Positions 11,173-64,000 are shown, counted from the first letter of the stretch. The stretch is DNA of 64,000 nt from a virus (IMGVR_UViG_3300036795_000241:11684-75683), one strand, 5' to 3'. Notes: generated from the letters alone by a model not told the origin. A program made the numbers and translations.

Positions 11173-11215
11173 GCGTCCCGTTCCACTTCCGTCAACCGGA
11201 GTTACCGATGAGTAA

Positions 11216-11256
11216 GCCGCAGAGGCGGGCATCCATTCGGGTGTCCGCCTCGCGGC
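11216..11256 (+). terminator. Stable hairpin, likely terminator
   Basis: GCCGC(A)GAGGCGGGCATCC-ATTC-GGGTGTCCGCCTCGCGGC; G-U pairs favour the + strand. Confidence 0.65.
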
Positions 11257-11274
11257 ATCTTTAGGGAGATCGCG

Positions 11275-24416: not shown

Positions 24417-26594
24417 GTGGTAGCCGCGACAGCATCCTCGCTACAAGAATGCATCGATAAGCTCGAGGACGTTACACAGGAGGGGTCGGAGTACCGAGCA
24501 CTTTGTCCGAATCACGGCGGACACGCACTACTTGTCTTCATCGACAAACGGAACAAGAATAGTGGTCGCGTCGTATTCCAGTGCAAGGCAGGATGCGAAT
24601 ATAGCGAGCTTGTCGTAAAGCTTCGCGAGCTCGGGATTCAACCCTTCGGCGACAATCTCGAATTCGTATACACCGACGCTAACGGAAAGCCGCTGTTCAT
24701 CAAGGTAAAGTACCGTCGCAAGTCCGACGGGCACAAGGCGCACTTCTACAAGTGCTTCGGGCGTAACGGCGTACCGATGAATCACAACAGCAAAACGAAG
24801 AATACGCGCGGACCGGACGGTAAGTGCAAGCGATGCGGAGAGAAGGATGTTCCGCCGACACTATACCGACTACCTGAGCTTATCGAAGGTATCCGCAACG
24901 GTGCGGAAGTGTGGTTCTGCGAAGGCGAGAAAGATGCCGATGCCGTATTCGAACGTCGCGGAAAGCGGAACATTGTCGTTACGTCAACGATGAACGGTGC
25001 GGATGACTGGAATGCGGAATACCGAGATCAGCTTGCCGGTGCCGCGTCAATCGTCATCGTTGCACATAACGACACGAAACTAGCTACCGGTACGAATCCA
25101 GGTTATCGTGGTGCGTGGAAGCGCTACGTATCGCTAAGCGAGTTCTCGAGCGTATCCGTAAAGCGAGCCGCCGAAGGTAACGATGCATTCGATCACTTCG
25201 CAAACGACCACGAACTCGATGACTTCGTATCCGTTTCGCCAGAGGAACTAGCGCAATACGCGAATCCCGATACACCTACCGCATCGCTAGCTGGCGAATT
25301 CGAATACACGCAACCGGAATACGCGGATCGCTTTGTCGCATTGTACGGTGATCGCTTTCGGTATATCACCGCGGAAGAGTGCTGGCTGTACTACGATGAA
25401 GGTCGATGGCGCGAAGATCAGTACGACACCGCATTCCACTTCGCCGAGACGCTATGTCGCGAGATCCTCAACGAAACGCCACGAATCGGCGATGACGGTA
25501 AGCGGAACCCGAACTATCAAGCTGCGAAAGATCGAACTAGTGTCGGCAATATCGGTGCGATCTGTCGGATTGCCCGCAATCGCCGCCCAGTTGTCACGAC
25601 ACGTGAGAAGTTCGATAGCGACCCGTTCCTGCTGAACCTCGCAAACGGAACGTACGACCTGCGTGCCCGTGAGCTTCGCGGATACGATCAGTCCGATATG
25701 ATCACGAAGCTAATCCCGTATCGCTATGACCCGGAAGCGAACGGTCCGGACTTCGATGAGTACTTCGCGGAAGTGCAACCGGACGAGCACTGGCGGGAGC
25801 AGATACTTCGCGATCTCGGATATTCGATAACCGGGAAGTACGGTGAGTTCGTATTCGTGCATGTCGGTAGTGGCGGTAACGGAAAGACCACGCTACTGAA
25901 GCTCGTTTCGCGGATCTTCCACGATTACGCAACCGCCGCTTCGTGGAAGATCCTCTCGAACAAAGCGGAAGACACGCACGAGACGATTCTAGCCGAGCTC
26001 GAAGGTAAGCGATTCGGGATTGTTCAGATGGGCGGACGCGCCCTCTCGTCCGAGCAGCTACGAACGATTGTCGCGGAGCCCGATTTCAAGGCACGTCGAA
26101 TGCGCAGCGACTCCCGCACGATTGAAGCTACGCACACGTTGCACGTGGCGCAGAACGATCCGCCTCCGATGAAGCAGCTTGACGCGAGTACACGTCGCCG
26201 AATCGTGGTCATCGAGTGGACCACCGTAATCGAAGATCAGGACGATACACTTCCCGATAAGCTTATCGCGTGCGGCGATTACGTATTGACGCGGATCATC
26301 GAGGCGTACTATCGCTTCAACCGGCACGAAATCGATAAGACCGCAACGGAAGCATACTTCGAGAAGAATCGCGTATACGCGTGGATCGCTGAGGCACTGG
26401 AGCCGGACGCTAATTCGTGGATCTCCACCGACGTGCTGTACGAAGCGTACAAGGAGTGGAGCGAAAGCTTCGGCGAGAAGGCGGAATCTTCTACGTCACT
26501 CGGTCGTACGCTAACGGCTCTCGGTTCGCTTCGTGACCGCAAATCGGAAGGCGGAAGGAAGCTGGTTATGCGCTCGGGTTTCCGATTCCGCTAG
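24417..26594 (+). CDS. DNA primase-helicase (Zn finger, TOPRIM, D5/P4-type SF3 helicase)
   Basis: CPNH...C..GC, CEGEKDAD, HND, D5_N LLNLANG..DL, GSGGNGKT. Confidence 0.92.
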   Translation: MVAATASSLQECIDKLEDVTQEGSEYRALCPNHGGHALLVFIDKRNKNSGRVVFQCKAGCEYSELVVKLRELGIQPFGDNLEFVYTDANGKPLFIKVKYRRKSDGHKAHFYKCFGRNGVPMNHNSKTKNTRGPDGKCKRCGEKDVPPTLYRLPELIEGIRNGAEVWFCEGEKDADAVFERRGKRNIVVTSTMNGADDWNAEYRDQLAGAASIVIVAHNDTKLATGTNPGYRGAWKRYVSLSEFSSVSVKRAAEGNDAFDHFANDHELDDFVSVSPEELAQYANPDTPTASLAGEFEYTQPEYADRFVALYGDRFRYITAEECWLYYDEGRWREDQYDTAFHFAETLCREILNETPRIGDDGKRNPNYQAAKDRTSVGNIGAICRIARNRRPVVTTREKFDSDPFLLNLANGTYDLRARELRGYDQSDMITKLIPYRYDPEANGPDFDEYFAEVQPDEHWREQILRDLGYSITGKYGEFVFVHVGSGGNGKTTLLKLVSRIFHDYATAASWKILSNKAEDTHETILAELEGKRFGIVQMGGRALSSEQLRTIVAEPDFKARRMRSDSRTIEATHTLHVAQNDPPPMKQLDASTRRRIVVIEWTTVIEDQDDTLPDKLIACGDYVLTRIIEAYYRFNRHEIDKTATEAYFEKNRVYAWIAEALEPDANSWISTDVLYEAYKEWSESFGEKAESSTSLGRTLTALGSLRDRKSEGGRKLVMRSGFRFR

Positions 26595-26607: not shown

Positions 26608-26861
26608 GGACACGGTTTTGGACACGGTTACTACATGCGTCCTTGCTGGGAGGACACGGTTTGACATGGTTTTCAGTCTTTCACCCTCAGGGGAAAAAGG
26701 CGAACTATATGTCTATTGAGCCTACAATATCGTACGTCGATATTGTTTTTCTCCCATACAGGACTATAGTCTAAAAAACCGTGCCAACCGTGTCCCGCGC
26801 CAGTATACGAGATGTAGAACCGTGTCCAAAACCGTGTCCTAACCATGTCCGAACCGTGTCC
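26608..26861. repeat. Putative replication origin: inverted iteron arrays around an AT-rich core
   Basis: GGACACGGTT-type x4 (26608, 26620, 26652, 26662) and inverted AACCGTGTCC-type x6 (26777, 26786, 26818, 26830, 26841, 26852), directly after the primase gene. Confidence 0.8.
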
Positions 26862-27815: not shown

Positions 27816-28500
27816 ATGGCGTTCATCGTAACGTACCGCAAGCCAGCGACCGAGTCCGGCGTTCCCGGACCGATCATCGAGCAGATCGCCATTCCGGACG
27901 AGCCTCAGCTGACCCAGATCGTGGTGGTCGAGGAAGAGCTCACGTTCATCTTCGCGGACGGCGCGGAGAAGACCATCTACGACATACCCGATGAGTGGGT
28001 CACGGTGACGCAGAGCGGTGCGACAAGGGAGGCAACGAATGGACACTGAGCAGGCGGACTACTTCGAGATACCGCCGGAGGGCGATCTCGTTCCGCCAGT
28101 GGGCTCCCGGGTCTTCGCCAAGCGAGAAGGCGAACCCGATCGTGTCGGTCTCGTGGTCGCGTGGGGTCGCGACAAAGCGGCGCACGAGCGTTTCGTCCAG
28201 CTCAAGAAAACGGCCGGCGAGAGCGCGTACGAGGCCCTGGTCGACAGCGAAGGACCGATTGTCGAGTTCGATGACGGCAACGGCGGACTGACCACCGAGT
28301 TCTACCCCGGGCAGAGCGTTACCGCGCTCAACCCGTATCAGATCCGCGAGAACATCCCGACCCGCACCGCCGGTATCGATGAGGCGGAAGCGAATCGTCT
28401 CGTAGATGCGTTCCGCGAGGGGTTCCCGGACGTTCACCCGGAAAGCAAGATTCGCGGTACCGTTACCGGTCGCCTGAACCCGCGGGACCCGGATTCCTGA
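27816..28500 (+). CDS. Two hypothetical genes (27816-28049, 28039-28500)
   Basis: Contiguous ORFs. Confidence 0.55.
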
Positions 28501-28507
28501 GGACCCA

Positions 28508-28631
28508 GGGTGAAATGGGCAGGCCAGGGTCCCAGTACTACATCGTATAAAGGTCCTGGCCTGCCCGACCTGCCCCGAAGGTATGCGACCATGTCAAATG
28601 ACATGCCCCCACCATGATCACTTCCTCAGGA
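28508..28631 (+). other. Conserved hairpin element, copy 1
   Basis: 15 bp stem 28517-31/28552-66, 20 nt loop with TACTACAT, downstream box CACCATGATCACTTCCTCAGGA. Confidence 0.75.
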
Positions 28632-28801
28632 GACTTTCGGTATGGGACAAGCTAGAAAGGATAAGCCGAAAATTTCATCCCGCGAAAGTATCCTGATTGA
28701 GCAGCAGGAGGAGCTAGCCAGGCGAAATGCGTGGCGAGAGCCAGTACGTGGAACCGTTGTTCGGTGACAAAGAAGCAAATATAACCACTTCCTAACAGGA
28801 C

Positions 28802-28830
28802 TTGACAGTGTGCCAGGTGGCGGGTAAACT
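28802..28830 (+). promoter_or_regulatory. Promoter upstream of the repeat triplet
   Basis: TTGACA-N17-TAAACT. Confidence 0.7.
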
Positions 28831-28951
28831 TGCTCCTGTGGACGGCAACCAGAAGCGTCGGAAGCGCTTTGACATCGGGGCAACTGGCGCTCGCACTTCC
28901 CCCCCAGGCGAGTGGCCGCCTTCGGGTCCGGTTTCCGTTCATGCACTATCG

Positions 28952-29119
28952 GCTCGGGGAGCTACTACCTAGTACGCGATCGTCCGGCGGAACCTTCTTC
29001 GCCCCCGTGAGAGGGAACCCTGGACATCGTGAAAGGGTAGCTCCCCGAGCTGACTTTATGCCTGCCGCTAAGCACGAGGGACGGACCGCGACGTGGGACA
29101 AGACAGCTCGGGGAGCTAC
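28952..29119 (+). repeat. Direct/inverted/direct 14-16 bp repeat triplet
   Basis: GCTCGGGGAGCTAC at 28952 and 29106; complement GTAGCTCCCCGAGCTG at 29037. Confidence 0.85.
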
Positions 29120-30019
29120 TATCTCGGCAACGTACACCTGCAGACTGCACTCGGTGGCGCCGGCGGTAGCTACGCCGGTTCGAATATCGAACACGTGTAC
29201 CACAAAACGGGCAACGAGGTTCGCGTAACGGATCCGCAGCTCGGTAAGTTCGCCATCTCCGCCGCCGCATATCAAGCGGTGCGCAACGCCGTCCTCCGTG
29301 AGCTAAGCGATAAGCTACCGGCGCCTTTCGTTGGGCTGCTTAATGTAATGTCCGGCGAACAAGATCTCAACTTGACAGGCCGGGTAACTTCGGCTACACT
29401 GGAGGAAGATAAGCCAGTTGGCCGCGACGAGACGGAGGACGAGATGACACTGCGCAAACAGCCGATTACCCGCGAGGGAGCGGAGGCGCTGGCGCGGCGA
29501 GCCGCCGAGGAGCTGGCGTTCCTCGACCGGCTGGAGGACAAGTACGGCGCCGAGCCGCAGGACGGAGCGGTGATCCGGTTCACGAAGCAGTTCGCCTCAC
29601 CGTCCTACGGTTACTCGGCACCGACATCACAGGTGGTCCGGTACACGTATGCCGGGATCCGCGCGAACGGGAAGTGGTACCTGACCGGCGCCAAAGGATC
29701 GCAGTCGTGGTCGTGGTTCGAGCTACTGAACTGGCTGGACGAGGGCGTTCCGGCGGAGCACTTTGTCGTCCTCTCCAGTGGCTTCGATCCGGATCCGGTC
29801 GACGTTACCGAGCGCATTCTCGAGCACCGCGTCGTTTACGATGAGCCGGGTAGCGTTCCCGGAGGCGACATCGATGCGGCCACGACCGAATTCCACGATG
29901 CGGAATACGACATCATCTCCCGTGCGCACCCGCGCTTCACGCCGAATCAGATCGAGGCGTTTATCGCGGACGAGCACAACTGCGCTAAGTGCATTAGCAT
30001 GCGGGAGGACGTCAAGTGA
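29093..30019 (+). CDS. Hypothetical protein with internal promoter and second start at 29444
   Basis: 308 aa ORF; promoter 29372 and GGAGG-ATG 29444 in frame; YTYAGIRANGKWYLTG motif. Confidence 0.6.
   Translation: MGQDSSGSYYLGNVHLQTALGGAGGSYAGSNIEHVYHKTGNEVRVTDPQLGKFAISAAAYQAVRNAVLRELSDKLPAPFVGLLNVMSGEQDLNLTGRVTSATLEEDKPVGRDETEDEMTLRKQPITREGAEALARRAAEELAFLDRLEDKYGAEPQDGAVIRFTKQFASPSYGYSAPTSQVVRYTYAGIRANGKWYLTGAKGSQSWSWFELLNWLDEGVPAEHFVVLSSGFDPDPVDVTERILEHRVVYDEPGSVPGGDIDAATTEFHDAEYDIISRAHPRFTPNQIEAFIADEHNCAKCISMREDVK
29372..29400 (+). promoter_or_regulatory. Promoter (CGGC subclass)
   Basis: TTGACA-N17-TACACT. Confidence 0.75.
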
Positions 30020-38584: not shown

Positions 38585-38660
38585 AGCTTCCCGCCGAAAG
38601 GCGGGGAGGCTGGGGGCGGGCCGGCACCTCCTCTCACAAGTTGCGAGTCGGTCCGCCTCC
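38585..38660 (+). ncRNA. Two hairpins after ssb; the second has an anti-RBS loop (candidate sRNA or terminator)
   Basis: GAAA-tetraloop hairpin 38585-38611; 14 bp stem 38612-25/38647-60 with loop ACCTCCTCTCACAAGTTGCGA. Confidence 0.55.
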
Positions 38661-43097: not shown

Positions 43098-43718
43098 CCG
43101 AACCGCCGCCGATGAGCCAAGAGTCCGCTCAGCGAGTACAGGAGGTAATGAAAGAGGTCATTCAAACGAACGACGCAATGCCCGGGAAGTACGTTATCTT
43201 CGTTACCGCGGATGTCGTACCGGACGACCCGCAGGCGATTGTCGAATGGGAATGGTACTGGCGTCCGATAAATCGACATGCAGGCGGCGGTTAATGCAAG
43301 CGGAACTGGTCCCGGTAATCGTACGCGTTCAATTCACGTGCGGGAATCACCTGACGCCACTCAAGCCGAATCTTATGCGACTTGAGTACCGATGTCCAAT
43401 GCGCGGTTGCGACACACTGCTACGAAAGGAAGAACTGCACCGCTGGAACTTGCACTTTACGAACGCCTTTCCCGAGGTAATCGTCACTGGACGGAAGGAG
43501 ACGTTATGCCGCTCGGAATCTGCCAGCCGTGTCAGGACGGAGCGACCGAGATGCTACTGGGCAATACCGAATTCGCTACCCGCCTGCACGAGCAGTGCCC
43601 CGGCGGTACGTGGTGTCTATGCCACCATAGCGTAAGTGGCTCCGCGATGTCGGAGCAGGATCAGCTACGACGCAACTTGACAATCCGGGATACCCCGGCT
43701 ATACTTGAGGAACCATGA
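43094..43718 (+). CDS. Three short hypothetical genes
   Basis: Contiguous ORFs, some Cys-containing. Confidence 0.45.
43677..43705 (+). promoter_or_regulatory. Promoter for the NDT-like/polymerase genes (CGGC subclass)
   Basis: TTGACA-N17-TATACT. Confidence 0.75.
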
Positions 43719-48657: not shown

Positions 48658-50170
48658 ATGGCAACAGTTCTCGGGACCAGGAACGCCGATGGAAGCGTCC
48701 AGATCGAGCGCGTGCTCACCCCGACCGAGGTCAAGAGCCGGCGGGGAAGTGTGAGCGAGAAGCGCGTTACCAGGTACCAGCAGGGCCGTGGCCGTCGGAC
48801 CCGGAGCGTGTACCAGGCAAGGGCACTGGGTTCCGGTCAGGGAGTGCTAGCCGCTCAGGACGCCGTGTTCACCGACAGCCCGCAGATCGACGAGTACCGG
48901 AGCGGGTTCCGGACCGCATGAGCGAATACCACGAGGTGCCCGGCACATTCCGATGTGCCGGGTGCGGGCGGGAGCACGCCAGCCACACCCCGCCGGTACA
49001 GATTGACTTCGAGCTTTACGCACCCGAGTGCGTTCCTGACAACTCCACCGCGACGGAGGGATAGCAATGGCACGAAGGACGGTTGTGCGCCGAAAGGCCA
49101 CCGGAAGCGTTACCGCACGGACCGCGGCCAGGCGCGCGGCGCGGAGACAGACCGAAACGATCCAGGTCCGCGCGGCCCGGCGGGTTGGCGGTGATGAGCC
49201 GGAAAGCGTTACGCAGGCCCGCACGTGGGACCGCAAGTACCGCCGGTATCTCGTGGCCGGGCTGTGCCACCCGTGCGCCGCAAAGGCATCGTGGGGCCAT
49301 TCGCTCGGATTCCAGAAGATCGATGACCCGTGCGCCAAGTGCCAGCCGATCGTGAACCAGTTCGCGACCCCCGGCCCCGAGGGTTCGAAGTGGCGTAAGG
49401 TCCTCGACAAGCTCGAGCGAAGCGTTACCCGTGAAGAGATGGAGGCGCTGCTTTGAAGCTCGCAGAACCGGCGGGTAAGCGCGGTGACCGAGTGCGTAAC
49501 GTGCATAGCAATCGCACGGCAACCGTGGAGCGCGTATCCGCGAACACGACATTCGTTATCTACGATGACGAACCCGGCGTAGAATACGGCGGAACGCATA
49601 GTGCGTTTGAACCGCTTTCGCCGAAGTAGGAGGAGCCGCACCGCGCCCCGGTCCGCCGGGGCTTCCGGTGTCTCCGAAGGTAACGGGCTACACCCCGCCG
49701 CGCTACCTACGCGAAACACGTCGCCCGATCCGTGTCCGAAGTGCGGTGCACTGGCGAACGAGCCATGCACGTACACGCAGGACCGCACGCAGATTCACCG
49801 CGATCCCGCCACGTGGGATTACGTGTGGAACGAGGGCGGTAAGCCGATGCAAATCATGCACCACGAACGACGGAGGAAAGCTATGACCGGATGCCCCGAC
49901 CCGACGCCACGCCCGGAGGACGGACAGACGTACACCGATTATGTCCTTCGCACGACCGGGAAGCCGGCGGACGCGGATCTCGTTACGCCGCCGAACGACT
50001 CGGAAACGACAACGCGACAGAAGGACAGCATCGCACACCAGCTAGTCGAACTCAGTTTCGACCCGCCGGCGTGGTTCGTAGCTAGCGCGTACCTGTCCGA
50101 CCTAAAGGCGCTGCTCCGTTACGTCCAGCGGGCTCACCTGCGCAAGGAGGCAGCGGAGAATGCTCGATAG
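48658..50170 (+). CDS. Run of short hypothetical genes (48658-48921, 49067-49456, 49601-50170 and others)
   Basis: ORFs after promoter 48577; CxxC motifs. Confidence 0.5.
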
Positions 50171-50651
50171 CCGCGATCCCGCCTGGATCTTCGACATCGA
50201 TGGCACGCTAGCGCATAACCGCAGCGGACGTAACATCGTCGACTATACACGCGTTAGCGAGGACGAGCCCGACGAAGCGGTGTTCCGGATCTGCCAAGCC
50301 CTCGTCGACAAAGGCGACACCGCGCTGTTCGTTACCGGTCGTGAGGACACGGAGCAGTGTCGACGCGATACCGAGCAGTTCCTGTACCTGAACCTCGACG
50401 TATTCGCGCTCGATCTCAGTCCGTATCTCTATATGCGCCCGGCAACCGAAAAGGATCGCTTCCGTAAAGGCGCCGAGCTCAAGCTCGAGATCTACCGCAC
50501 GCAGATCGAACCGAAGTACCGCGTTTTCGGCGTATTCGAAGATCTACCTACCGTGGTACACATGTGGCGCGAAGAGGCCGGGCTGTCCGTCTTCCAGTGC
50601 GCCTCAGTTCCTGAGCTCACTCCGGAGGAGGCGGCTAAGCGTGGACGATAG
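50160..50651 (+). CDS. HAD phosphatase (T4 PNK phosphatase-like)
   Basis: FDIDGTLA, VTGR, LYMR, K, FED...V.MWR..GL..FQ. Confidence 0.88.
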   Translation: MLDSRDPAWIFDIDGTLAHNRSGRNIVDYTRVSEDEPDEAVFRICQALVDKGDTALFVTGREDTEQCRRDTEQFLYLNLDVFALDLSPYLYMRPATEKDRFRKGAELKLEIYRTQIEPKYRVFGVFEDLPTVVHMWREEAGLSVFQCASVPELTPEEAAKRGR

Positions 50652-50901
50652 CACATTCGGCGAATACGTACCGGGAAAAGGCGGCGGCTCGATTTCGTAC
50701 AACGTGCAAGGGCTCCCCGACGGTCTCCCAGCCGGTACCTATGCGACCCGGGTGCTCAACGCACGATGGGTCGTGCGACGCGACGGCGTTCTCGACTGGG
50801 TTGTCGAGATGGAATTTGTCGGACCGGCAAAAGATGACGAGCCGTGTCTGTTTCCCTTGATCAAGACCGACGTGTCCGGAGGGAGTGATCATGGTGAGTG
50901 A
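50641..50901 (+). CDS. Hypothetical protein, last rightward gene
   Basis: GGAGG RBS. Confidence 0.5.
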   Translation: MDDSTFGEYVPGKGGGSISYNVQGLPDGLPAGTYATRVLNARWVVRRDGVLDWVVEMEFVGPAKDDEPCLFPLIKTDVSGGSDHGE

Positions 50902-50997
50902 TGGCCATTCCACCAGGTTCTCATTTTAACCCGGCCTAGGGCATCCCAGGACCGGATGGCTATGTAGTATGCTGGCCCTGGGATGCCCATTTGACCC
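50875..50997 (-). other. Conserved hairpin element, copy 2 (inverted)
   Basis: 15 bp stem 50939-53/50974-88; 20 nt loop with TACTACAT on - strand; box at 50875-50896 matches copy 1 at 20/22. Confidence 0.75.
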
Positions 50998-50999
50998 GG

Positions 51000-51484
51000 T
51001 TAGCCCTGGCCGGCCCACTTCGTTAGCGGACCGCCGTTACCTGGTTCGCCTTCGCGCCAGCCGTGCCACCGGTCGCGCTCCACCGTTACGCCATTGAACG
51101 CATCGAGGCACGCGGTGAGAAAGCTAGCGAGGACGAAGTCGGGCGTATCGGATACGTTCTCGACGCTGTGCTTGTTGATGAGCTCCTCGAGCTCCTGCTT
51201 AAACGTCGCCATCAGTACGACAACGTTCCGTAGGTGACGACACTGCTCGCCGTATTAGCGGTCGAGATTCGAATACCGGATCCCGCCATGATCACGAGAG
51301 CGGTAATCGCGAGCAGGCTAAACGCGCCCTGCAGTAGCCCATTGAACCGATTCGGGCGCGCGTAAATCGGCGTGCGGTGCAGCGGGCGGTATCGCTTGGA
51401 CTTCGTCTCGTCGCGAGTTCCGTAAAGGAAGATCGCACTTCCGATAGCGATGACGATTCCGCAGAGGGTCCAATATAGTGGCAT
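51000..51484 (-). CDS. Two small genes (51000-51212; 51212-51484 membrane)
   Basis: Coupled ORFs; SVENVSDTPDFVLA motif. Confidence 0.6.
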
Positions 51485-62034: not shown

Positions 62035-63350
62035 GAGGACTGATTCGTTGGGTCTTGCCCTGTGAATTGTACCCGCGAAAAGCCCGGCGGCAAACCTAGA
62101 TCGGCCAACGAATTTCCAACTGCATCACCGGCGTATGAATTACCGAATTGGTCGAGTATCGTACACGCCCACGGCTGCGTATCGATCGAAACGGAAACGC
62201 CACTAGCTACATTCGCCTGCAGCATTATCGATACTCCGAGATCCGGGAGCGTAAGCTTCGGGTTCGTAATCGGACCGTTGAATACGATAATCGGCCACGT
62301 CCAGAGCGGACCCGCGTTGTTTACGCCTTGCTCCACCGAGCTAAGCGCAGCTAGCAATACTGGCGGCGTAAACGGAGGTGCGGCACCGCCATTCGGGAGG
62401 ACCAGCGAGAAGTCGTCGCCCCAGAAAATATCGGTGGCCAGTGGCGTACCGGAAAGCGTTGGTACGACACGAGCACCGACCGCACTCGAATCCGTAGCCG
62501 TGAACGGGAACGATACTGGATACCACTGTCCGGCCACTGGCGCGAACGTCGGACTGGTTATCGTCTCGAGGTATGTCCCGCTAACGTCGTACGTGTTGAT
62601 ATTCAGCGCTATCGGTCGACTCAGTGCGGCTGGCGCATAGATCCACCCGGTAGCGATATAGCCGACATTCGGCTTGATTGCCGTAACGGTGGACTGATAG
62701 TAACCCGCTGTACCGCCGGTCGGTACGAACTTCGCCGCCTGGAGTCCGGAGTGAACGTGCGTATTATCCAGCGTAAGTACGCCGCCAGTTCCGACCCACC
62801 CGGTCAGTCCGCTTTCGAATCCGGGATTCGCTAGCAGATTTACTGGTGTACCTAGATCAGTCGGAGACAGCTTTAGATTTACCGAATACTGCATATCGCT
62901 GTACACATTCGGATCGGCGGAAACGAATGCTGCGACAAACGGAATCGCACCCCGAGCTACCGAACCCAGCGTCGGTGCAATGCTCCGTCCACGCCCGTAT
63001 ACTCGGCGGGACACCTGCGAATTCGGGTAGTTGAAGCGAAGTACGGAAACTGCACCGGGTACTAGACGCACTTCCCGATTATTCCACGCTGCTTCGAGCT
63101 GCGCGTATACGTCCTGCGCACCAATCGAATCGTTAGGTCCGACCCAGACGTTTCCGGTGAACGTAATCGTTTTGCCGCTCGTCATATAGTCCGTGCCGAA
63201 ACGAATTCCGTCGCGACCGGATAGCGGCTGATCCTGCGCAGTAATTTGCGCCGGGTCGACCTGTGTCTTCGCAACTAGCAGCTGAGTATTCTTACCGAAT
63301 ACGAGACCGTCGACACTATATTGCCCATCGGCAAGTACGGGATCAGCCAT
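61980..63350 (-). CDS. Distal tail (Dit-like) protein with inserted carbohydrate-binding module
   Basis: Follows the tape measure; DP..Y and N.G....P...F.GP..NP; internal NLLANPGFESG..GW module. Confidence 0.75.
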   Translation of the reverse strand: MADPVLADGQYSVDGLVFGKNTQLLVAKTQVDPAQITAQDQPLSGRDGIRFGTDYMTSGKTITFTGNVWVGPNDSIGAQDVYAQLEAAWNNREVRLVPGAVSVLRFNYPNSQVSRRVYGRGRSIAPTLGSVARGAIPFVAAFVSADPNVYSDMQYSVNLKLSPTDLGTPVNLLANPGFESGLTGWVGTGGVLTLDNTHVHSGLQAAKFVPTGGTAGYYQSTVTAIKPNVGYIATGWIYAPAALSRPIALNINTYDVSGTYLETITSPTFAPVAGQWYPVSFPFTATDSSAVGARVVPTLSGTPLATDIFWGDDFSLVLPNGGAAPPFTPPVLLAALSSVEQGVNNAGPLWTWPIIVFNGPITNPKLTLPDLGVSIMLQANVASGVSVSIDTQPWACTILDQFGNSYAGDAVGNSLADLGLPPGFSRVQFTGQDPTNQSSCQLLWRSATGTIGGTTI

Positions 63351-64000
63351 GCGTACTCTCCAGCTGGACTCGGCGCAGCGTAAATAGCATCTCGTTTAGG
63401 GCGTCCGCAGTGTCGCCTGAGCCGTAGTAATTCGAGTGGTACTGACCGATCAACGGTGCTCCGCCCTGCGTTAGCGATCCGCTGTTTATCGCCTTCACAA
63501 ACGCTTCCGACATCTGCGGGTCGAGCATCATCTCGTTCTTCTTCGTACTATTGTTCACCATCGTTATGCCGGGCGGTACCGTACCGCCATCGTCATACCA
63601 GTTGAACGCTACTTCATGCCCCCACGCCGCTTGCGGGCTACCGTAGCGATCTCGTACGTAATTCTCGCCCCAGATGATCTGGTTGATATAGTCGCCGAGA
63701 TCGTACGGGTGTCCCTTGCCCAGTGCCTGCGGGATGCCGTATGCTCCGGAGCTCGGGTTAACGGCGTACGGATTCCACCCGCTTTCCTGGTTCCACAACG
63801 GAATCAGGTACTGCATCTGCGACTGCGGCCAGCCGTACTGATTCAGAATCGAAGCCGCATACGCTTGTGCGACTTGTGCGGAATGCGTTGTCGCACCCGA
63901 ATTACCGAGATACGCGCTATTCGCGGCAGCTTCCTGTGCCGTTTGCACGCCGCCCTTAATCGCGTCCTCGACGCTTTGAATCATCGCTTTTACGGAAAGC
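63343..64000 (-). CDS. Tape measure protein C-terminus with lytic transglycosylase domain (partial)
   Basis: LWNQESGWN..A.NPSSGAYGIPQAL...QI.WG..Y..RYGSP..AW......WYDDGG. Confidence 0.85.
   Translation of the reverse strand, partial: LSVKAMIQSVEDAIKGGVQTAQEAAANSAYLGNSGATTHSAQVAQAYAASILNQYGWPQSQMQYLIPLWNQESGWNPYAVNPSSGAYGIPQALGKGHPYDLGDYINQIIWGENYVRDRYGSPQAAWGHEVAFNWYDDGGTVPPGITMVNNSTKKNEMMLDPQMSEAFVKAINSGSLTQGGAPLIGQYHSNYYGSGDTADALNEMLFTLRRVQLESTHG

Follow-up and report, generated by a model that had tools for sequence, protein, structure and literature searches.

What is a folded element of about 125 bases, present twice in opposite orientations and 22 kb apart, doing in the genome of a tailed phage? 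The question is raised by virus IMGVR_UViG_3300036795_000241, a 75,683-bp IMG/VR record rated complete, of which bases 11684-75683 (64,000 nucleotides [nt], hereafter the window; positions are counted from its first base) were analyzed. A preliminary description had pointed out the pair, and its coordinates and all of its sequence statements were verified when both copies were read and aligned. The two elements, which are diverged and oppositely oriented, are real, are selected to fold as a single strand and are unclassified. Overall, their most likely role is that of a special module that terminates or processes transcripts at the borders of transcription units, with a sequence specificity that leaves room for a more novel role. 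It should be noted that all evidence on the element comes from one orphan genome with two full copies. The parts of the element are listed below; the strand given for each copy is referred to as its named strand.

28508-28631, + strand: copy 1, whole element, read and aligned
28508..28516, + strand: copy 1 5' block GGGTGAAAT, the 5' strand of a short lower stem and then the invariant AAAT internal loop
28517..28566, + strand: copy 1 main hairpin, arms 28517-28531 and 28552-28566, RNA minimum free energy -40.4 kcal/mol, z = -3.9
28536-28543, + strand: copy 1 loop motif TACTACAT
28590..28605, + strand: copy 1 second hairpin, CATGTC-AAAT-GACATG
28610..28631, + strand: copy 1 22-mer CACCATGATCACTTCCTCAGGA, within a 28-nt C-rich, G-poor tract (28601-28628)
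50997-50875, - strand: copy 2, whole element, read and aligned
50989..50997, - strand: copy 2 5' block GGGTCAAAT, a lower-stem strand and then AAAT
50939..50988, - strand: copy 2 main hairpin, arms 50988-50974 and 50953-50939, RNA minimum free energy -37.6 kcal/mol, z = -4.0
50969-50962, - strand: copy 2 loop motif TACTACAT
50915-50899, - strand: copy 2 second hairpin, TGGTGG-AATGG-CCATCA
50875..50896, - strand: copy 2 22-mer CACCATGATCACTCCCTCCGGA, within a C-rich tract (50878-50905)

Both copies open with GGGT(G/C)AAAT, and in RNA folding the GGGUG of copy 1 pairs with UGCCC at 28571-28575 to form the lower stem. The arms of the 15-bp stem are GGGCAGGCCAGGGTC/GGTCCTGGCCTGCCC in copy 1 and GGGCATCCCAGGGCC/GGTCCTGGGATGCCC in copy 2, and 12 of the 15 pairs are identical. 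Two neighbouring pairs differ on both sides (GC to UA and GC to CG), one differs on one side only (U-G to C-G) and both copies have G-U as pair 13, which bears out the compensatory changes and the shared G-T wobble reported in the preliminary description. The loop is 20 nt long in both copies and holds TACTACAT at positions 5-12, with agreement at 2 of its 12 remaining positions. Between the hairpins of the element about a third of the positions agree, and the second hairpin matches in position between the copies while its letters largely differ. The conserved 22-mer, CACCATGATCACTNCCTCNGGA, lies 43 nt (copy 1) or 42 nt (copy 2) after the stem and is identical at 20 of 22 positions. In copy 1 its 3' end is the AGGAG that precedes an ATG at 28642, and in copy 2 it overlaps the final codons of the + strand open reading frame (ORF) 50641-50901. 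Its reverse complement reads as a Shine-Dalgarno sequence, 7-8 nt and an ATG (GAGGAAGTGATCATGGTG in copy 1, GGAGGGAGTGATCATGGTG in copy 2), and on that same opposite strand the invariant AAAT becomes AUUU immediately after the stem. After the stem, the named strand continues with GACCUGCCCC and UAGGCCGGGU, without a U-tract. We also noticed that CCTGCCC occurs twice on the 3' side of copy 1 (28560-28566 and 28569-28575).

The pair stands alone in the genome. A blastn search of copy 1 against the whole 75.7-kb genome returned copy 2 (68% identity over 127 nt, E = 4e-4), the 22-mer had two matches in the window at three mismatches or fewer with none expected, and a covariance model built from both copies, as the preliminary description had proposed, recovered only the two full copies when every genome position was scored, the next match having an E of about 0.9. 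When the ~15,000 70-nt windows of the genome are ordered by stability, those of the two hairpins rank 4th and 10th, and hairpin pairing is perfect in both copies (100% of cells). In addition to the changes in the long stem, hairpin 2 contributes two further double changes, so that the covariation comprises one dinucleotide event in the long stem and two pairs in hairpin 2. The observed covariation values were reached in 30 of 500 shuffles, and covariation from two sequences is suggestive rather than decisive. Near-perfect blocks beside randomized positions are the signature of purifying selection, which appears to have acted in both copies. Given that there is hardly any change in the stem letters, the loop 8-mer or the 22-mer while other positions are randomized, something seems to read the sequence of the element and not only its shape, and the conserved stem, loop and tail imply a putative dedicated reader, either protein or RNA. 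A search for a loop-to-tail pseudoknot found no position-conserved helix except weak 5-6-bp alternatives involving the 3' arm, and a search for trans targets of the 22-mer or the loop gave best complementary matches of 10-12 nt, which are at chance level and away from ribosome-binding sites.

The preliminary description took the wobble and the covariation to imply function as single-stranded DNA or RNA. Selection for folding as a single strand is upheld, but the wobble fixes the strand for RNA only, by ~2 kcal/mol, and not for DNA. In RNA folding, the hairpin of each copy was more stable on the named strand than on the complement by ~2 kcal/mol, the lower stem (4-5 bp) formed on the named strand only, via G-U pairs, and the tail beyond the small hairpin was mostly unpaired. 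With DNA parameters, both strands folded equally well and there was no strand preference. The wobble argument is thus weak, because the advantage is confined to RNA and is gone over the whole 141 nt and with DNA parameters. The tract around the 22-mer is also unusual in composition: over 28 nt, C minus G reached 11 in copy 1 (top 0.16%) and 12 in copy 2 (top 0.06%) of the windows on both strands, and at windows of 60-80 nt the excess of C over G in copy 2 was no longer exceptional.

Both copies are co-oriented with the local transcription and start just past a stop codon, by 8 nt in copy 1 and by 3 nt in copy 2. This co-orientation and stop-codon adjacency, the location of copy 1 on a promoter-class boundary (see below) and the C-rich 22-mer with its Shine-Dalgarno-ATG complement had been missed in the preliminary description. 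The genes that flank the copies, with lengths in amino acids (aa), are as follows.

28018..28500, + strand: orphan gene, 160 aa, with its TGA 8 nt ahead of copy 1; final gene of the unit from promoter 27309
28642..28767, + strand: possible 41-codon ORF directly after copy 1, with a weak coding signal
51000..51212, - strand: 70-aa gene, PHROG 31227, last of the late arm, with its TAA 3 nt before copy 2
50641..50901, + strand: 86-aa orphan gene, last of the + arm, ending within the copy 2 22-mer

In the codon-model gene map, the + arm is a single block of genes from 6.8 to 50.9 kb (~44 kb, early/middle), and the - arm (late, ~31 kb) runs from 6732 leftwards, across the record ends, down to 51000, where the structural and lysis genes end. 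The convergent stops at 50901 and 51000 leave a gap of 98 nt, which copy 2 fills; the main hairpin of copy 2 is the sole strong hairpin where the arms converge, and no other strong hairpin is found at either element site. No consensus terminator was found between the converging arms, and the terminator scan listed neither copy of the element. The codon model preferred ORF 50641-50901 to its antisense shadow. Coding on the named strand was rejected: the in-frame extensions of the upstream genes share an end TGA, but their frames differ over the conserved 5' block and the peptides are unlike. Comparison of the two upstream proteins gave no meaningful similarity, and a decayed paralogue of ORF 50641-50901 beside copy 1 was rejected on an empty BLASTP result.

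The promoters of the + arm change at copy 1. We found 22 sigma-70-like promoters (TTGACN-N16-18-TAnA(A/C)T) at 6845-48605 of the window, all on the + strand and none on the late arm. The first promoter class has the sequence TGCTA(G/T/C)ACT with a TG-extended -10 box; TGCTA, with this -10 box, is found in 12 of the 14 promoters upstream of copy 1, and CGG(C/G)TA in none of them. The CGG(C/G)TA promoters are the next four past copy 1 (28802, 29372, 32704, and 34414) and the one at 43677; they are found only between the two copies and make up 5 of the 8 promoters downstream of copy 1 (versus 0 of 14 upstream; Fisher P about 0.002). Given that the promoter class switches at copy 1, this copy lies on a transcription-class boundary with fresh promoters after it, and the two classes may separate early from middle promoters. 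A PF04542 search of the genome found no sigma factor gene, and a PF00940 search for a T7-type polymerase had no match, although it gave none in the control genomes either. A sigma-70-like or phage-polymerase promoter within the 22-mer was rejected, as the 22-mer lacks a -10 box and the PF04542 search revealed no sigma factor gene. Beyond the possible 41-codon ORF lie about 320 nt without coding signal (28768-29092), with promoter 28802 and two occurrences of the repeat GCTCGGGGAGCTACTA, near 28952 and 29108. They may form a structured leader, or an RNA, ahead of ORF 29093-30019; Rfam had no match in 28768-29092.

In addition to its portal, tail and lysis genes, the phage encodes a D5-type primase-helicase (24417-26594) with D5_N and DUF5906 domains, Dda-like and SNF2 helicases, a DNA polymerase A, a 7-deazaguanine operon and a polynucleotide kinase. 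Its host is probably an actinobacterium, judging from its DUF397 and Rv2179c-like domains, from the relatives of its primase, which are mostly in actinophages, and from its soil source. Because the late operon runs across the record ends, the sequence behaves as a circle or a circular permutation; the ends of the record cut in or beside a - strand gene of at least 1215 aa (L044 1-3650 and window 63343-64000), which is probably the tape measure.

We tentatively propose that the two copies are paralogous modules that form the 3' untranslated ends of two transcription units and end or process their RNA, by Rho-assisted termination, by processing or by both, a proposal that has a substantial chance of being correct, if somewhat short of an even one. 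Copy 1 would close the last early operon (promoter 27309 to gene 28018-28500), and copy 2 would close the ~31-kb late operon where that operon meets the + arm. As RNA, the module would form a long two-part hairpin, in which an AAAU internal loop separates a lower stem of 4-5 bp from an upper stem of 15 bp capped by the 20-nt loop; the small hairpin and a C-rich, G-poor tract without pairing would come next. RNA polymerase would pause at the long hairpin, which would also provide a 3' end that is either resistant to exonucleases or cleavable by a double-strand-specific nuclease, and the C-rich untranslated tail would load Rho, which would then finish termination. At the point of convergence, the + arm would be stopped as well, by this palindrome as it reads on the + strand with AUUU after it. 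What is observed is how the copies are built, placed and oriented, and that neither site has a second strong hairpin; that RNA ends or is processed there, that Rho takes any part and that a factor recognizes the conserved stem and loop sequence are inferences. We also noticed an Rv2179c-like 3'-5' exoribonuclease domain (E = 4e-9) in one early protein (window 6802-28500, + arm, exact gene not resolved). With a 3' exonuclease made by the phage, 3' hairpins on the phage's own transcripts would gain protective value.

Canonical intrinsic terminators have a U-tract of 7-9 nt directly after the stem, and intrinsic terminators need a U-tract with mycobacterial RNA polymerase (PMC3993855). For a U-less hairpin in an actinobacterial phage, Rho help or processing would therefore fit better than classical intrinsic termination. 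Hairpins directly past stop codons also occur elsewhere on the + strand of the phage, at 11215-11257, 48939-48962, and 38588-38657; the first has a tetraloop, an ATCTTTA tail and the look of a classical terminator, and the other two have no U-tract. The presence of a classical-looking terminator (11215-11257 with ATCTTTA) in the same phage suggests that the element is of a distinct kind. Like the hairpin or bidirectional terminators of convergent phage operons and the Rho-assisted terminators of 3' untranslated regions, the element has a GC-rich hairpin right after the last stop codon and is co-oriented with transcription, copy 2 is the only strong hairpin between the converging arms and an untranslated C-rich, G-poor tract follows. 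Unlike them, it has a 20-nt loop with a conserved 8-mer, a conserved stem sequence, no U-tract, a 22-mer at a fixed distance and a homologous second copy inside the + arm. With a canonical intrinsic terminator it shares the GC-rich stem, of 15 bp, but its loop is 20 nt instead of 3-8 nt and it has only AUUU on the opposite strand. The RNase III signals of T7 (R0.3, R1.1, and others) are paralogous irregular hairpins with an internal loop, which lie between genes past stop codons, number several per phage and leave a protective 3' hairpin. Such a signal can be taken as intergenic double-stranded RNA of about two turns with an internal loop in it. The element may come close to this layout (lower stem, AAAU internal loop, and 15-bp upper stem on the named strand, after a stop codon), but its lower stem is only 4-5 bp and there are just two copies, on opposite strands.

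Several observations weigh against a transcript-end module. A terminator or stabilizer needs pairing, yet 12 of the 15 stem pairs, 8 loop bases and 20 of the 22 tail bases are identical. The 20-nt loop is far from the 3-8 nt of ordinary terminators, and a canonical terminator exists elsewhere in the phage. A rut site was taken to be untranslated, unstructured, C-rich and G-poor RNA past a stop codon, usually of 60-80 nt, and the C-rich tract, at ~28 nt, is short for such a Rho loading site. Over the whole 141 nt, the folding energy does not favour the named strand, and the opposite strand is slightly better. The 41-codon ORF past copy 1, if real, would mean that termination there is incomplete, and co-orientation of both copies by accident has a chance of 1 in 4. 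The conservation of the stem sequence and the complement of the 22-mer, with its ribosome-binding site and ATG, are left unexplained by termination or processing.

In line with the preliminary description, in which no known family was recognized, the element belongs to none as judged by the Rfam searches. The window had no match in Rfam at gathering thresholds, and in a relaxed search of both copies the best matches were microRNA models at 14-21 bits against cut-offs of 70-100. A blastn search of both copies against 50,697 phage records had the neighbouring 70-aa gene as its sole match. Among four pattern scans of IMG/VR, two gave 8 and 12 matches, which lay in coding sequence without a hairpin, and two were empty; one pattern scan of GTDB gave a single chance match, in a Geobacter gene. 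The proteins neighbouring the element had no relatives in IMG/VR, and a comparison with 5.8 billion proteins left both the 160-aa and the 86-aa neighbour as orphans. The primase reached at most 31% identity in a JGI metagenome scan, and the polymerase and primase at most 27% identity among GenBank phages. Relatives of the primase-helicase with 46-68% identity (P0003-P0024) were, however, present in Logan, JGI, and ENA assemblies, some of them on contigs of 72-76 kb (up to 75.8 kb), which points to an unsampled phage family, although IMG/VR and the GenBank phages show none.

The 70-aa gene that precedes copy 2 belongs to a very large family of small proteins (6803 matches at E <=0.001). A 76%-identical copy of it is found on a virus contig of 70% GC (L013 3001-3198), which besides this gene has two proteins with one weak partial match each to the phage; such a copy on an otherwise unlike contig suggests that the 70-aa gene moves between phages. 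Its 3' end contains one further feature.

51020-51004, - strand: third partial 5' arm AAGTGGGCCGGCCAGGG, 15/17 identical to the copy 1 arm and 28 nt upstream of the copy 2 arm

This partial arm, which stands in tandem with the copy 2 arm, encodes KWAGQG, the last residues of the 70-aa gene, and about 0.14 matches like it are expected in the whole genome. In the 70-aa protein family, KW is ancestral and the remaining tail varies. Together, the third partial arm and the ancestral KW make it seem that the hairpin arose out of the 3' end of the 70-aa gene, with a later duplication to 28.5 kb, which suggests that the element is a lineage-specific invention and not an old, widespread family.

The loop motif is shared with the presumptive start of replication.

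26608..26861, no strand assigned: iteron origin of GGACACGGTT units, which flank an AT-rich core in mirror-image sets, immediately past the primase-helicase gene

There are three sites of TACTACAT in the genome: the two loops and 26629-26636 (+) in the iteron array, and the origin site named in the preliminary description is therefore the third and last. A mirrored CTACAT lies at 26812-26817 (-), beside the matching iteron across the origin, and (A)CTACAT comes after the second iteron on each origin side. Because ~10 conserved 8-mers could have matched, the corrected P for the origin match of TACTACAT is about 0.05.

This match underlies the idea, which we consider unlikely, that the element is a single-stranded DNA replication signal, one per strand. 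A hairpin exposed at the fork would offer its loop TACTACAT to the D5-type primase-helicase for priming or loading, in the manner of the ssi/sso sites of plasmids or the mitochondrial light-strand origin. More generally, and just as doubtfully, the hairpins might be strand-specific signals for a phage protein that also acts at the iteron origin via a (T)ACTACAT box, either for priming or helicase loading on each displaced strand or for coupling replication to the ends of the early and late units. The confinement of TACTACAT to both loops and origin site 26629 with a mirrored CTACAT opposite, the phage's own primase-helicase (D5_N, DUF5906), the presence of one copy on each strand and the occurrence of TTGACATGGT, a variant iteron, in the second hairpin of copy 1 are all consistent with such a signal. 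So is the stem sequence, which is kept far beyond the needs of pairing; conservation of stem sequence is commoner for readers of DNA hairpins than for readers of RNA helices, and it is mainly because it suits the former that we retain replication at this low level. The copies are, however, 1.9 kb and 24 kb from the origin and hence not exposed by its melting, the origin match has only the corrected P given above and the iteron-like match, of which 1.3 are expected by chance, is missing from copy 2. Moreover, the DNA strands fold equally and so do not tell which of them would act, a fork moving rightwards from the origin would leave the wrong strand exposed at copy 2, and a fused helicase-primase should not need a special site per strand. 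The sso of rolling-circle plasmids has a conserved loop motif, CS-6, and the element likewise resembles ssi/sso sites in that its loop motif is conserved and recurs beside the iterons in the origin. In RSF1010, ssiA and ssiB are 40-nt sites with a short hairpin at nt 7-27; they lie inside oriV beside the iterons, become accessible when the origin melts and have RepB' as their primase (PMC8567376). A dedicated primase of this type begins its primer at a fixed base. Of the analogy to these sites drawn in the preliminary description, one hairpin signal per strand and a weak link through the origin motif survive, but size and location do not: the element is ~125 nt, with a 50-nt hairpin, a second hairpin and the 22-mer, and its copies lie outside the origin, 1.9 and 24 kb away. 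No RepB'-type or rolling-circle Rep gene was found in the phage, and Pfam scans of 68 + arm proteins contained no Rep or relaxase domain. The other DNA-level proposal of the preliminary description, that the copies are recombination sites flipping the 22-kb segment between them, is very improbable. The copies are indeed inverted to each other, and a hairpin could be a folded recombination site, but they are only 68% identical and inversion would set 22 kb of + strand genes against the promoters' neighbours and break the organization of the arms. Searches of the genome for tyrosine and serine recombinases (PF00589, PF00239) found none while their positive controls worked, and the Pfam scans of the 68 + arm proteins contained no transposase, HUH, or integrase domain; the lack of a recombinase or reverse transcriptase gene in the genome, and of an HUH domain among these proteins, makes inversion unlikely. 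A 20.7-kb contig of a single DNA run, probably from the source sample, crosses copy 1 in reference order with no alternative joint, a low-power test on assembled contigs. A diversity-generating retroelement or retron was rejected, as PF00078 is absent from the genome and the differences between the copies are not adenine-specific, and an element like a miniature inverted-repeat transposable element was rejected, as the ends are not inverted repeats of each other.

At the level of RNA, it is rather improbable, slightly more so than a replication signal, that the opposite strand is the working one, carrying a strong ribosome-binding site, an ATG and a short frame, with the hairpin and AUUU as a weak intrinsic terminator; the element would then be a mini-gene, a leader-plus-terminator cassette or a small RNA derived from a 3' untranslated region. 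Consistent with this are the Shine-Dalgarno and ATG in GAGGAAGTGATCATGGTG and GGAGGGAGTGATCATGGTG, the AUUU straight after the stem, the slightly better folding of that strand over the whole region and the fact that it is certainly transcribed at copy 2 (end of the + arm), where the ATG overlaps the stop codon of ORF 50641-50901 like a coupled start. In addition, unrelated contigs that share an 18-mer by chance use the 18-mer as a real gene start on the opposite strand. At copy 1, however, there is no - strand gene or convincing promoter, the best candidate being TTGTCA-N16-CGTACT, which lacks the TA of a -10 box; the frames are 25 and 12 codons long and their peptide is not conserved, and the G-U pairs become A-C mismatches with loss of the lower stem. 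Three U would also make a poor terminator for an actinobacterial polymerase (PMC3993855). We give still less credence to a cis-acting RNA site that would recruit a phage factor to the polymerase in the style of lambda nut or HK022 put, or to a factor-dependent regulated terminator, either of which would control read-through from early to middle genes. As in lambda nutL/nutR with tL1/tR1 and HK022 putL/putR, there are exactly two inverted copies, each co-oriented with transcription just past a gene, and a conserved single-stranded box, a hairpin and a C-rich tract follow just after an early gene, with GGGU.AAAU, the loop motif and the C-rich tail laid out around the hairpin like boxA, boxB and rut. 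In lambda, nutR sits after cro. Copy 1 also lies on the promoter-class boundary, and conservation at the level of sequence implies a specific reader. A nut-type site stands past a promoter and ahead of the terminators to be overridden, with genes beyond; this placement fits copy 1, after which there are genes and hairpins, and not copy 2, which ends an operon and is followed only by the + arm in antisense. Rather than pointing away from a control region, the copies face each other, and the middle genes are served by promoters of their own. Rfam gave no match to nut, put or any other antitermination RNA, no consensus match was seen and neither an N-like nor any other candidate factor was identified. 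It is less probable again that the copies are an evolutionary leftover, a generic hairpin, with no role beyond that, which originated at the 3' end of the 70-aa gene and was duplicated to 28.5 kb afterwards, the conserved blocks being due to gene conversion or chance. The third partial arm in the last codons of that gene, where the encoded KW is ancestral in the family, does point to a local, lineage-specific origin, and no homologue was found in any collection scanned, but the mosaic of blocks and the perfect pairing indicate purifying selection in both copies, and gene conversion over patches of 8-22 nt is implausible at 68% overall identity. Duplication within a genome is known for the PeSL cassettes of T4-type phages, mobile regulatory units of a promoter and a stem-loop that are repeated within the genome. 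The element resembles them as a stem-loop duplicated in one genome at gene boundaries, with both neighbour genes of copy 2 ending in element-derived sequence; it differs in having no internal promoter and only two copies, and no sign of mobility or of shuffling between genomes was found.

Should the replication machinery prove to be the reader, this double-stranded DNA phage would have a cis signal of a new type. The element is also a candidate for a compact bidirectional insulator for use in high-GC hosts. If, as we tentatively propose, the two copies are transcript-end modules, the ends of the early and late blocks would be marked by one reused, sequence-specific module and not by generic terminators, which would provide a handle on termination in actinobacterial phages, where U-less hairpins are common and the mechanism is disputed.

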